The notes under the pieces are model-generated. The model was not told where the DNA came from, searched no databases, and saw only the letters and a list, made by a program, of their open reading frames with translations. Of a stretch of 64,000 nt of DNA, positions 5,240 to 45,010 are shown in pieces. Source of the DNA: an uncultured Bacilli bacterium (GTDB lineage: Bacteria > Bacillota_I > Bacilli_A > RF39 > UBA660); NCBI GenBank assembly GCA_934086145.1, contig CAKOHV010000002.1, forward strand, positions 450 through 64,449, given 5' to 3'. The translations under genes and the position numbers were made by a program. Each line of letters starts with the position of its first letter. The stretch's first letter is position 1.

Positions 5240-5402
5240 TATTAATTGCAGATGTATTTGGCAGCGTTGTCATTAAATATAAAGTGTTTATTCCGTAAGT
5301 TTATTAGTAGCTAAGGCTGCCTTAGTGAACATATCAAAATAAACTCCCTATAGTTTAATTGCAACAATCCTATATATCAAATTATGGAAGGAGAGAAAAA
5401 TT
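5240..5402 (+). promoter_or_regulatory. Structured 5' leader of rpsD (possible S4 autoregulatory element)
   Basis: A roughly 160-nt untranslated leader. GGCAGC (5260-5265) can pair with GCTGCC (5315-5320). B. subtilis rpsD is known to be autoregulated through its leader. Confidence 0.35.
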
Positions 5403-6005
5403 ATGGCAAGATACACAGGTCCTGTTTACAAAAAATCTCGTCGTTTAGGTTTCTCAATTCTTGAAAATGGTAGAGAATTAGCAACTCGTCCATATGCTCC
5501 AGGAGCTCATGGAAACGATAAGAGACGTAAATCAAGCGAATATGGTATTCAATTAGCTGAAAAACAAAAAATCAGATTAATGTATGGATTAAATGAAAAA
5601 CAATTCCATAAATTATTCGAAAAAGCATCAAAAATGAAAGGTACTGCAGGTCACAACCTTCTAAATTTACTAGAATCTAGATTAGACAATGTTGTTTATC
5701 GTTTAGGTTTAGCTAAGACTAGAAGAGCTGCTAGACAAGTAGTTAACCATGGTCACATTACTGTTAATGGTGTTAAGGTAGATATTCCTTCATATCAAGT
5801 TAAAGTTGGTGACGTTGTTGCTGTTAAAGAAAATTCTTTAGATCATCCAGCAATCAAAGAAGCTGTTGAAGCATGCTTAAATCGTCCTGCTTATGTTGAA
5901 TTTGATAAAAATTCAATGTCTGGTAAATTAGTAAGATTACCTGATAGAAGTGAACTTAACCAAGAAGTTAACGAAACACTTATCGTTGAATTCTACAACA
6001 GATAG
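5403..6005 (+). CDS. rpsD: 30S ribosomal protein S4
   Basis: 200 aa beginning [16 protein letters not shown], with an S4 RNA-binding domain ([34 protein letters not shown]). GGAGAG RBS upstream. Confidence 0.97.
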
Positions 6006-41051: not shown

Positions 41052-41909
41052 CTAATCTTCCTTAACTTCTTCTATTTCATAAGCAAAATAAGCTTCATTT
41101 AAATCGACATTAGCTAAAATTCCCTCAACTCTTCCAATATCTGTATATTGCCACATATCATAGATTCCTTTATAACTAACCCCATCCATATAATGCGCTA
41201 ACCATGTTTTATAATTGCCAAACCTACTTAAGTCCCAACGCATTTCCATGGCAGTTTTATTACCATAAAGCATTCCATTATAACCATGAGCTTTCATATA
41301 ATCTAAGAAAACTAAGGCATTATAATTTATTATTTCATCACTTATTTTAGAAACTCTTCCACTTTCAAATGATTCAAAATCATAAGCTACTGGGTAAGTT
41401 ATTTGATAATCTTTAATTAAATTCAAGGTAAAAGTTGCTTCTTCAAGGACTTCATATTCATTAGTCGCTGACGAAAAAAAATACACTCCGACTGGGACAT
41501 TATAATAATTAGCTTGTTGAATATTATATCTAAAATAACTATCCTCAACAATTTCACCATCGCTTATCTTTCTTACGCCAACTCTAATCATGGCAAAATC
41601 TATTCCCGTATTTTTTAAAGCTTGCCAATCAATTTTTCCTTGCCACCCTGATACATCAACCCCTTTAACATCGCGAGCAATTTCCACAACTTTAGTCTGA
41701 TTTATAATTTCTTTATCATTTTCTTTTATTTCATTGATTAACTGTTGAATTTCATCAAATTCTTCATTACTTTCTTTATATTTATAGGCAAAGCTATGTC
41801 CTAATATTGAAAAAAAAATAACTAAAATTATACTTGATAAGATTAAAATCGTTAAACGACGATGTTGCAAAGTTATATTTTTAAATTTATCAAATAAATT
41901 ATACTGCAT
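41052..41909 (-). CDS. Membrane-anchored GH25 muramidase (lysozyme)
   Basis: N-terminal TM, then GVDVSGWQGKIDWQALKNTGIDFAMIRVG...GVYFF, which is the GH25 signature. Confidence 0.8.
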   Translation of the reverse strand: MQYNLFDKFKNITLQHRRLTILILSSIILVIFFSILGHSFAYKYKESNEEFDEIQQLINEIKENDKEIINQTKVVEIARDVKGVDVSGWQGKIDWQALKNTGIDFAMIRVGVRKISDGEIVEDSYFRYNIQQANYYNVPVGVYFFSSATNEYEVLEEATFTLNLIKDYQITYPVAYDFESFESGRVSKISDEIINYNALVFLDYMKAHGYNGMLYGNKTAMEMRWDLSRFGNYKTWLAHYMDGVSYKGIYDMWQYTDIGRVEGILANVDLNEAYFAYEIEEVKED

Positions 41910-42003
41910 ATCTTATATCTCCTATATTAATTATAGCATGTCTTATATAGAACTTAAAGCTTGCAAAAAAAGAAAGAAGAAATTTCAACAACTTGGTTAG
42001 TTT

Positions 42004-43260
42004 CTATTGAAATTTAATTCTTTCATTTACATAGTCAACTACTTCATTAAGTTTTAAAGTAATTTGTTCCATAGTATCTCTATCTCTTAAAGTAACTATA
42101 CCATTATTAATAGACTCATCATCAACAGTTAAACACCATGGTGTTCCACAAGCATCGGCTCTTCTATACCTCTTACCAATACTACCAGATTCATCATAGC
42201 TCGTCATAAAGTTTTTACTTAACATATTATAAATTTCTCCAGCCTTTTCACTATGATATTTTTTTACAAGTGGCAAGACACATACTTTATAAGGAGCAAA
42301 ATATGGAATAAATTTCATAACCTCACGAGTTTCACCATTTTCAAGCGTCTCCTCAGTATAACTATTATCTAAAATTGCCAGCGTTAATTTATCACATCCA
42401 ATAGTAGATTCAATTATATATGGAATAAACTTTTCATTAGTTTCTGAATCTAAGTATTCTTGATAATTACCAGAATATTCTTGATGTCTTCCTAAATCAT
42501 AATTAGTTCTATTATGAGTACCATTAACTTCTCCCCATCCAAATACATACTTATACTCAATATACAGGCTTCTTTAGCATAATGAGCTAATTTTTCATGA
42601 TCATGAAACCTTAATTTGCCTTCACTAATTCCCAAATTCATAAAATATTTCTTCGCATAATCTTTAAAATATGCATAAAGTTCACTATCAGCGCCTTCTT
42701 TACAGAACGTTTGATATTCCATTTGTTCAAATTCAATTGTTCTAAAAGTAAAGTTTCCAGGGGTTATTTCATTTCGAAATGCTTTACCAATTTGTCCTAT
42801 ACTAAATGGTAGCTTAGCACGCATAGTTCTTTGGACATTTAAAAAGTTAACATATTCCCCTTGGGCATTTTCTGGTCTTAAATAAACTTTATTTTTACCT
42901 TCTTCAGTAACTCCCATATAAGTCTCAAACATTAAATTAAATTGTCTAATATCCGTATAATCGCTCTTTCCACACTTTGGACATGGTATTTTATGTTCTC
43001 TAATATAAACCATCATTTCTTCTTGACTCATTCCATCAGCATGCGCATTTGCATCAAAATCGCTGCATCTACTTCATAAGCATTAGGTCTTTCTTGAATA
43101 AAGCGTTTACGCCAAGAATCCTTAATATTATTTTTAAGTCTTGAACCTAATGGACCATAAACCAGGTATTAGCAAAACCACCATATATTTCACTTCCTTG
43201 GAATATAAATCCATATTTTTTACAATAATTTACTAATTTTTCCATTGTTAATTCTGCCAT
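42004..43260 (-). pseudogene. glyQS: Glycine--tRNA ligase (glyQS, alpha2 type), disrupted
   Basis: Homologous segments lie in three frames. They are MAELTMEKLVNYCKKYGFIFQGSEIYGGFANTW, then YGPLGSRLKNNIKDSWRKRFIQERPNAYEVDAAILM, then ADGMSQEEM...FNLMFETYMGV...AHYAKEA, then YIEYKYVFGWGEVNGTHNRTNYDLGRHQEYSG...C-terminal anticodon-binding domain. The lesions are -1 shifts near 43160 and 42562 and a deletion of about 40 codons near 43050-43060. Confidence 0.85.
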
Positions 43261-43261
43261 A

Positions 43262-43792
43262 TTAAACCTCCAAATATTTTATTAAATCTTCTTTCTTATT
43301 AAATATTTTTATATAATTCAAAATAGAATAATCATTAAATTTATCTTCGATAAGTCTTGTAATAAACTTAATCAAATCACTATAATATCCATCTTGATTA
43401 TAAACAATTATCTCTTTTGTACTTTCAATCGTTCGATTATCCTCTAACATACTGAATAGCTCAGCCAAACTTCCAGTCCCACCCGGAAGAATAAGAACTT
43501 TAGAAGCATCATTATAAATTTTAGCTTCTCTTTCAAAAGTATTTTTTACATAAGTGCAATCAACATTAAATAAGCTTGTATCTTCATGATATAATTTTAA
43601 TGTATAAATCTTGATATTTCTATGCGCATCATTAAAATTACTTAGTATTTTTCCAAACATACCTTCACTTGCAATACCGCCCATAACTAAATCATAGCCA
43701 CAACGAGCTAAGGCCTTACTTATAAAATCAGCATCTTCAATATACTTTTTATCTATCTCTGAATGAGAAGAACAACCTATAAATATTTTCAT
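43262..43792 (-). CDS. LOG-family (TIGR00730) Rossmann-fold nucleotide-binding protein
   Basis: 176 aa with the PGGxGTxxE-type motif LPGGTGSLAELF. The stop lies 1 nt upstream of the glyQS ATG. Confidence 0.75.
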   Translation of the reverse strand: MKIFIGCSSHSEIDKKYIEDADFISKALARCGYDLVMGGIASEGMFGKILSNFNDAHRNIKIYTLKLYHEDTSLFNVDCTYVKNTFEREAKIYNDASKVLILPGGTGSLAELFSMLEDNRTIESTKEIIVYNQDGYYSDLIKFITRLIEDKFNDYSILNYIKIFNKKEDLIKYLEV

Positions 43793-43810
43793 CCTATCAC
43801 CTTCTAAAAA

Positions 43811-43938
43811 TAAAAAAACTCCTAGAATATGTAAGGACGAATTAATATCCGCGGTTCCACCTTACTTATTCTAGAAGAATCAGCTCTTATCTATACTGCT
43901 CAGGGTTTTCCACACCCGTCATCACACTTATTGAAATC
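43811..43938 (-). promoter_or_regulatory. T-box riboswitch-like leader (Gly/U73-type acceptor-binding bulge) with U-run terminator
   Basis: The minus strand reads AAGUAAGGUGGAACCGCGG-auauuaauu-CGUCCUUAC (plus 43828-43866). The T-box consensus is AAUUAGGGUGGNACCGCG...CGUCCCU. The UGGA bulge predicts a U73 tRNA. A 15-bp hairpin (43822-43836 with 43860-43874) is followed by a U7 run (43812-43818). A K-turn-like GUGAUGA...CUGAGC hairpin lies upstream. Confidence 0.7.
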
Positions 43939-43967
43939 AATATAACCCATTTTATACAACTTGTCAA
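43939..43967 (-). promoter_or_regulatory. Putative promoter upstream of the T-box-like leader
   Basis: On the minus strand: TTGACA (43967-43962), 17-nt spacer, TATATT (43944-43939). Confidence 0.5.
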
Positions 43968-44458
43968 CAAAGAACAAAAGACAAATAAAGTTGTCCTTGA
44001 AATCTCACGATTTCAAATTTCTACTTCACAGACACTCTACTGAGTCTTCTCCATAGACTTAAAATCCGATAGTCGCTACCGTACATATTTTTTTATTTTA
44101 TCTTTTTGTTTTTCTTTTTTTATTTAATTATTTATTATTATTTTTGCTAGTTTTTCTATATACATTTTCCCCCAACTAGTTTTTTAATAATATGGTTTTT
44201 ATCATACAATATTGTTGTTCATATAGCAATATATTTTTACACAATTTTTAATTATTTTTTAATGTAATAGATGAACTTTCCTATAAGAAAAAAATTTCCC
44301 CAAAAAACTTTAAAAATGACTTGTTCTAAATGTGGGAGAGAGACAATGGAATATAAAAATGATAATGAATAATCACCATCACTTTTTTGCATGAGTAGAT
44401 TTATTTACCTACCCTTTTTTGTTTATCTACTAAAAACGCCTAATATATAAAAAAACAT

Positions 44459-45010
44459 TTATTCTTTAAAACCATAAATACCATGTATCTTTTCTAAATC
44501 ATCGTTACTTAACTGAACAACTTCCCACTTCTTTTGCTCATTTTTCATAACTTTAAAATTAATATTATATTCAACCATTGCTGTACTTTCATTCATCTTT
44601 TCAAGCTTATAATTTAAAAATAAATTTTTATCATACTTGTTATCACTATTATAAAATTTTTCACTAGCTTCATTTAAATACTTAACAGCTTCTACTTGCG
44701 GGGTATATAAATCAATTACTCTAATTCTTGTCACGACTGTCGCTTTATCCCCATCATAGGTTTCATTAACAATATTATAAGTTAATGTTTTATATTGTTT
44801 TAATAAAATCTTTTTATAGAGTTCTTTTTGTTCATCCGTAAAATCTTCACTATCTACATAATCATTTAATTCGTTAACAATACTCTCGTCATTATTAATA
44901 TAGCCATTTAAATATTCGACAACTGCATCTTTAGCCGTTAAATTCTTATTACATCCTAATAAAATTAACATTATTATTAAAAATAAACAACTTTTTATAG
45001 CCTTTTTCAT
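44459..45010 (-). CDS. Lipoprotein (hypothetical)
   Basis: Signal peptide with lipobox LILLGC, then a 160-aa soluble domain. Confidence 0.65.
   Translation of the reverse strand: MKKAIKSCLFLIIMLILLGCNKNLTAKDAVVEYLNGYINNDESIVNELNDYVDSEDFTDEQKELYKKILLKQYKTLTYNIVNETYDGDKATVVTRIRVIDLYTPQVEAVKYLNEASEKFYNSDNKYDKNLFLNYKLEKMNESTAMVEYNINFKVMKNEQKKWEVVQLSNDDLEKIHGIYGFKE

Follow-up and report, generated by a model that had tools for sequence, protein, structure and literature searches.

The locus at positions 42004-43260 (minus strand) of the window, by which we mean the whole 64,000-nt stretch of DNA analysed here (C2:450-64449 of the genome bin G000), is a pseudogene of glyQS, the gene for the α2-type glycyl-tRNA synthetase (GlyRS). 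It has homology to the α2-dimeric glycine--tRNA ligase from end to end, and no reading frame is open across it. Our analyses make it very probable that this gene belongs to a xenologous 2.0-kb unit, consisting of a T-box, a LOG-family gene and glyQS, that came from another lineage of gut Bacilli, and that the redundant synthetase is decaying while a native copy serves the cell. A first-pass annotation of the same DNA had described the locus as a glyQS pseudogene with three independent lesions. Six-frame translation and alignment to the closest intact homologue agree with this description; the xenologous origin of the gene is new.

A glyQS gene broken at three sites

The genome bin from which the window is taken consists of 47 contigs with a total length of 1.66 Mb, has a G+C content of 29% and is ~90% complete. 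As reference for the lesion calls we used L028, which holds the closest intact homologue. Six-frame translation of the minus strand from 43260 to 42004, together with the alignment to L028, gives a GlyRS reading path that runs from frame 0 to frame 2, on to frame 1 and back to frame 0. If intact, the gene would encode a protein of 456-457 aa. The first of the four segments (frame 0) reads MAELT...GGFANTW and meets a stop at 43147-43149. The second (frame 2) reads YGPLGSRL...DAAILM, the third (frame 1) FDANAHADGMSQEEMM...AHYAKEAC, and the fourth (frame 0) (D)IEYKY...ERIKFQ, with its stop at 42004-42006. The earlier view that homology extends throughout the interval thus stands, while the number of frame changes, given before as two, has to be raised to three because the 115-nt deletion described below is itself out of frame.

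All three ORF pieces of the locus (37, 179 and 104 aa) match the NCBIfam glycine--tRNA ligase model NF003211, at model positions 1-28, 115-278 and 356-453 and with E-values of 3e-07, 4e-61 and 8e-34, respectively. Taken separately the pieces score 29.7, 207.2 and 117.2 bits and do not reach the curated cut-off of 312 bits. In a profile search of the G000 contigs with the same model the locus scored 218.7 + 207.8 bits, with internal stops. Motif 2 (FRNE...FRT.EFEQME), the GWGE block and the HGTP anticodon-binding domain can still be recognised. The last of these corresponds to the 104-aa ORF at 42004-42318, and PF03129 is recorded on the 104-aa product in other assemblies.

Lesion 1 (43161-43164, minus strand) is a 1-nt deletion at ~43162 with an adjacent A>T change. 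The ancestral TGGGAT has become TGGTT, which destroys the conserved W-D-Y and leads to the premature stop that ends the first segment. The alignment to L028 bears out the earlier observation that one nucleotide is missing after ...GGFANTW near 43160.

Lesion 2 is a deletion of 115 nt (38 codons and 1 nt) on the minus strand, with its junction between 43050 and 43049, although it can be placed anywhere within 43049-43061. According to the alignment to L028 it takes out HPRVWEASGH...NLIDD. The xPxxWxASGH segment that should follow DAAILM is therefore gone from the locus, whereas in the closest family every one of the 117 full-length members retains it, as do the native enzyme of G000 and the nearest homologues, L028 and L029, so that relatives do not natively lack it. 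The loss of a segment that includes NPxxWxASGH had been recognised before, and only its size, put at about 40 codons, needed correction. In the intact sequence the two breakpoints lie in an imperfect 10-nt direct repeat (TTTTAATGCA / CTTTGATGAG). Because of this repeat a microhomology-mediated (slippage-type) deletion, as had been proposed, is a plausible origin of lesion 2, although the repeat is only suggestive of it.

Lesion 3 (42563-42564, minus strand) is a 1-nt deletion that has changed TGTGAT to TGTAT. It had been placed after ...AHYAKEA near 42562; the deletion is there, and its position is after ...AKEAC, at 42563/42564. The three -1 shifts sum to -3, which brings the C-terminal part back into the start-codon frame.

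Alongside the lesions we counted 10 substitutions at sites where the closest family is at least 98% invariant. One of them is an AGA>AAA change at 42388-42390 (minus strand), which replaces the motif-3 Arg with Lys (GCDR>GCDK). At least 98% of the family have this Arg, and the native enzyme keeps it as well.

An intact glyQS on another contig

We searched the rest of the genome for glyQ/glyS and for another glyQS. Contig C5 carries an intact, stop-free glyQS of 459 aa (G000:C5:27390-28769), which matches NF003211 with 666.7 bits over model positions 1-454 of 454 and is preceded by a T-box-like leader. The first-pass annotation had reasoned that the essential function must be supplied elsewhere, and this C5 gene is predicted to cover it. 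A back-up enzyme of the glyQ/glyS kind was also considered and was rejected, as glyQ (α2β2 type) was not found in the G000 contigs.

In the tree of GlyRS proteins the C5 enzyme falls inside the same-genus clade, as sister to that of G013. We searched 30 other genomes of the genus and class. A match was found in 28, each with exactly one glyQS, and among the genomes searched the second copy is private to G000. That C2 and C5 are linked in one cell is suggested by the same-genus affinity of both contigs and by a repeat that they share, which is described below.

Affinity of the dead copy to the enzymes of another lineage

The dead copy and the native enzyme share 55-64% amino acid identity (~57%). 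The pieces of the dead copy are 93-94% identical to the intact glyQS products of L028 and L029, and ~91% identical at the nucleotide level. A read-through translation of the locus, with X at the junctions, finds thousands of intact 456-aa proteins from metagenomes at 77-84% amino acid identity, and more than 500 loci in species-representative genomes encode this 456-aa type. Because no other GlyRS was found in any of the 12 genomes checked, one closed 1.5-Mb chromosome included, and none of them has glyQ, we predict the 456-aa enzyme to be the ordinary working synthetase of another uncultured lineage of gut and rumen Bacilli. Examples are the MAGs behind L028/L029 and records titled Ca. Faecimonas, Ca. 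Faecenecus, Ca. Onthousia and 'uncultured Tenericutes'. With this clade the dead copy shares the signatures FRTIEFEQMEYQTF, ENAQGEYVNF and GWGE[IV]NGTHNRT as well as the order T-box-LOG-glyQS. The genes of the clade are intact and are the only GlyRS genes of their genomes, whereas the dead copy is broken and resides in another genus that has its own glyQS.

The tree places the dead copy as sister to L028 and L029 (support 100/98) within the 456-aa clade (100/100), and this clade has the same-genus clade as its sister. On the protein level the branch of the dead copy has a length of 0.075, which is ten times longer than those of L028/L029 (0-0.007).

The sister relationship of the two clades means that the two types of enzyme are not very distant, and the short T-box leaders of the two copies in G000 are also similar (76% identical over 145 nt). 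Both observations would fit an ancient duplication within the host's own ancestry, with the second copy since lost in all sampled relatives and no horizontal acquisition. We consider such a history very improbable, as the dead copy is nested deep inside the 456-aa clade beside L028/L029. Its 91% nucleotide identity to these loci also contrasts with the other genes near the L028 glyQS, which mostly show 37-64% amino acid identity to their best matches in G000 (one exception, 86%). Furthermore, wherever a same-genus genome gave a match it had a single copy, and in five of these genomes the site is empty. The dead copy appears from these comparisons to be a horizontally acquired xenolog and not a decayed native gene.

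The single exception among the genes near the L028 glyQS encodes a 464-aa FAD-dependent oxidoreductase-like protein (L028:2395-3789, compared with G000 C27:4249-5640). This may be a further case of exchange between the lineages, or the protein may just be highly conserved.

The 456-aa clade itself (P0001-P0120; L028-L107) sits on a long stem branch of 0.88 changes per site and carries clade-wide substitutions at sites that canonical enzymes conserve: FRT-I-EF for FRT-R-EF, ENAQGEY for ETAQGIF, GWGE[IV]NGTHNRT and IEST.GCDR. The Ile for Arg in FRT-R-EF raised the idea that the family is a neofunctionalised GlyRS paralogue, which we rejected since the enzyme has no other GlyRS beside it in the 12 genomes. 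We take the Arg->Ile position (F-2) to be distinct from the ATP-binding Arg of motif 2 (F-4), which is kept in the 456-aa family.

A 2.0-kb cassette with promoter, T-box leader and LOG gene

The similarity to L028/L029 is not limited to glyQS. It covers a foreign cassette of 2.0 kb (41965-43967, minus strand) with ~91% nucleotide identity, beginning exactly at a promoter and ending ~40 nt beyond the glyQS stop. Within the cassette the order is promoter, glycine T-box leader, LOG gene and glyQS. The predicted promoter (TTGACA-17-TATATT) and a short glycine T-box leader with terminator occupy 43800-43967 (minus strand), based on an Rfam match, a leader alignment and a fold. The Rfam match (RF00230) has a score of 43.7 bits (E=2e-7), which is below the gathering threshold of 93 bits; the related leaders of L001, L028, L033 and L034 score 33-37 bits against the same model. 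When aligned to the leaders of L028, L029 and L033, the cassette leader has both the T-box core and the terminator. The fold of 43800-43935 (minus strand) predicts a small hairpin with GGA in its loop, a second hairpin and a long terminator helix with the T-box core inside it.

The first gene of the cassette (43262-43792, minus strand) is an intact gene of the LOG/TIGR00730 family that encodes 176 aa and whose stop lies 1 nt before the ATG of glyQS. Its product is 87.5% identical at the amino acid level to the LOG protein encoded upstream of glyQS in L028/L029. Both the frame and the PGGTGSLAE motif are kept, and dN/dS is 0.14-0.17. It is the only LOG in G000, and a distant LOG was found in just 4 of 25 same-genus genomes. 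Among 80 loci of the putative donor lineage, 30 have the order T-box-LOG-glyQS (for example L028, L029 and L033), and in the others the T-box stands directly before glyQS (L030 and L034, positions ~5260-6000). The presence of both orders indicates that LOG has been inserted into, or lost from, the T-box operon within that lineage.

A more tentative proposal, which we think possible but would not bet on, is that the cassette persists for the sake of its LOG gene, driven by the T-box and under purifying selection, with the dead glyQS as a decaying 3′ passenger. In that case the transfer would have put a LOG-family enzyme of nucleotide metabolism under the control of glycyl-tRNA charging in a new host.

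The insertion site

The cassette is part of a 2.5-kb insertion (41940-44458) that is absent from the same intergenic spacer of same-genus genomes. G005, G008, G009, G010 and G012 have 46-305 bp between the two flanking genes, and no insertion. Both flanking genes are host genes and are syntenic in the relatives: one encodes a GH25 muramidase-like protein of 285 aa (41052-41909, minus strand) and the other a 183-aa protein with no Pfam match (44459-45010, minus strand). The insertion is made up of the foreign cassette and a host repeat of ~485 bp, and ~25 nt of the old spacer have been replaced.

The repeat (43972-44455) is AT-rich and non-coding and abuts the cassette promoter. At least six copies of it, ~90% identical, are found in G000, often at contig ends (C23:13082-13555, C5:28774-29098, C10:43-345 at the start of the contig, and the ends of C8 and C2), and same-genus genomes contain partial matches. 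The repeat family gave no Rfam match and has no clear terminal inverted repeats. A search for inverted repeats and target duplications around repeat and cassette gave nothing convincing, and neither an integrase nor a tRNA was found at the cassette ends. On C5, a truncated copy of the repeat starts 4 nt downstream of the native glyQS stop codon.

In relatives (spacers of L109-L113) a terminator hairpin (AAGAATAAT...ATTATTCTT) closes the gene for the 183-aa protein and overlaps the stop codon of this gene. At 44440-44470 of the window the distal half of this hairpin has been replaced by the insertion. Transcripts of the 183-aa gene may now extend into the repeat and on into the cassette.

The lesions recur in independent assemblies

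Independent contigs carrying the locus were gathered from public assemblies by exact-protein look-up, using the neighbouring LOG protein or the 104-aa C-terminal fragment. The same look-up with the 179-aa fragment gave no match in public assemblies because other gene callers start this fragment five codons later (174 aa). The set comprises L118, L119, L121, L122, L125 and L127-L130. The contigs originate from Hadza and Nepal gut metagenomes assembled with SPAdes (L118 from Hadza, L122 and L128 from Hadza/Nepal), from two MERR22 samples (the scaffolds L119 and L127), from one MEGAHIT assembly (L129, k141) and from Logan assemblies of other runs (L121 and L130).

Identity to the window is 100% for L119, L121 and L122 and 99.3% for L125, and L118 shows a single difference over 4,200 bases. 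All three lesions are seen in L118, L119 and L121. L122 and L125 have lesions 1 and 2, and these contigs stop before lesion 3. For L127-L130, where gene calls only were compared, the called genes show the identical split into 174 + 104 aa. Host flanking genes are also carried by L118 (62.9 kb), L119 (15 kb), L127 (14 kb) and L128 (11 kb).

A further contig, L120 (Logan, SRR29888868), represents a strain that is 0.9% diverged and has the insertion at the same site. It carries lesions 1 and 2 only, both identical to those in L118, L119, L121, L122 and L125; at lesion 3 it retains the G and consequently has a 337-aa ORF. Lesion 3 is therefore the youngest of the three and still polymorphic. Lesions 1 and 2 are common to all alleles seen in the host context, and no intact copy was seen there.

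The polymorphism of lesion 3 also bears on whether the locus could still be of use, either by programmed frameshifting or through its fragments, the 104-aa anticodon-binding domain and the 179-aa catalytic core. Such a use would be consistent with the net shift of -3 that leaves the C-terminal part in the start-codon frame, with the calling of the fragments as genes in other assemblies, and with the retention of the promoter, the T-box and an intact upstream gene. However, stops follow within a few codons of each shift, no slippery or repeat tracts are found at the shift sites, and with lesion 3 polymorphic the split into 174 + 104 aa is not a conserved architecture. The active site of class II aminoacyl-tRNA synthetases, moreover, needs both the deleted segment and the motif-3 Arg. 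We regard any remaining function of this kind as highly improbable.

Since the genome is a metagenome bin and lesion 1 lies inside a GGG run, one might suspect that errors of sequencing or assembly produced the frameshifts and the deletion and that the cell has an intact gene, which is also what the first-pass annotation had named as a possible objection to itself. Against this, the lesions recur, as far as each contig covers them, in nine or more contigs that stem from different samples, projects and assemblers. Lesion 3 lies outside any homopolymer, a deletion of 115 nt is untypical of errors, and the motif-3 R>K and other changes at invariant sites stand alongside the indels. We conclude that the lesions are genuine and that assembly error is effectively excluded for practical purposes, on the basis of the at least nine independent contigs rather than of read pile-ups.

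Two short contigs have other structures. L124 (ERZ28614571, 1,068 nt) is a mosaic: its LOG part is that of the window (2 differences in 533 columns), but the 5′ part of its glyQS is that of L028, with 2 differences over 382 columns, and here the gene is intact and has neither lesion 1 nor lesion 2. Either the assembly has joined two sequences across the first ~50 nt of glyQS, which are identical, or the contig represents a genuine recombinant or a donor-like genome. In L123 (Logan SRR26844693, 1,289 nt) the cassette resembles that of the window (99%) as far as codon ~26 of glyQS and then gives way to unrelated sequence, which has no match in G000 and encodes a small Cys-rich zinc-ribbon-like ORF. 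L123 is either another structural variant or a chimera.

There is next to no chance that the cassette as a whole is a chimera of bin or assembly, and the property of a co-resident organism of the donor lineage: genomes of the donor lineage (L028) do come from the same kind of sample, Hadza gut metagenomes, and L124 is a mosaic, but L118, L119, L127 and L128 have host genes on both sides within single contigs from independent assemblies, and a broken gene cannot be the sole GlyRS of a living donor.

Timing and selection

Compared with L028, both glyQS and LOG of the window cassette have a dS of ~0.35. L028 is therefore a relative of the donor and not the donor itself. For the dead glyQS compared with L028 the overall dN/dS is 0.10, so that most of the divergence must have arisen under constraint, and the inactivation is recent relative to the split from L028. 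The ratio of nonsynonymous to synonymous changes is 24:31 on the window branch vs 6:20 on the L028 branch, a suggestive difference that falls short of significance (Fisher p = 0.09).

A proposed course of events

With the gene read as a xenolog, we infer that a 2.0-kb transcription unit was acquired from a different uncultured lineage of gut Bacilli, in which the 456-aa enzyme is the only GlyRS, and that glyQS was probably intact when it arrived. Cassette and host ~485-bp repeat would have settled in the spacer between the GH25 gene and the gene for the 183-aa protein. The recipient had its own T-box-controlled glyQS, so the incoming synthetase would have been redundant, and this redundancy is the probable cause of its decay. 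Lesions 1 and 2 would have knocked out the xenolog first, and lesion 3 would have followed later, not yet reaching all strains. Missense changes have also piled up at invariant sites, including the motif-3 Arg. LOG has stayed intact and may be what holds the cassette in place.

Such a course would provide a clean, small case of a redundant acquired housekeeping gene being lost stepwise within a gut species, with the co-transferred LOG retained and an intermediate allele (L120) still in the population. It challenges no current view. In practical terms, annotations should label 42004-43260 a glyQS pseudogene and assign the GlyRS function to the C5 gene, as mis-annotation could mislead checks of completeness and of essential genes on the G000 bin.

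Comparison with known systems

With the α2-dimeric (class IIa) glycine--tRNA ligases described by NF003211/TIGR00389 the dead copy has full-length homology, in pieces. It differs from these enzymes in that it has no open frame, that xPxxWxASGH is deleted and W-D-Y destroyed, and that the motif-3 Arg is replaced by Lys. The dead glyQS is a relic and not a functional member of the GlyRS family.

Extra or xenologous aminoacyl-tRNA synthetase genes are known in bacteria, such as thrZ and tyrZ of Bacillus subtilis and the acquired, mupirocin-resistant ileS2. The glyQS described here resembles them in being a foreign or divergent second synthetase beside a housekeeping gene, a situation in which the second gene often has a T-box of its own. 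Those genes, however, are kept by selection through stress or antibiotic resistance, whereas the extra glyQS has not been maintained. The loss of a redundant acquired aminoacyl-tRNA synthetase is a known kind of event, here observed together with an intermediate allele. A literature search for glyQS pseudogenes returned nothing relevant.

The leader of the cassette can be compared with the glycine T-box of Bacillus subtilis glyQS. Both have the T-box core AAGGTGGAACCGCG, a terminator and a GGA in the loop of a small 5′ hairpin. The cassette leader differs in being much shorter, in scoring below the gathering threshold and in having the LOG gene as the first gene downstream.
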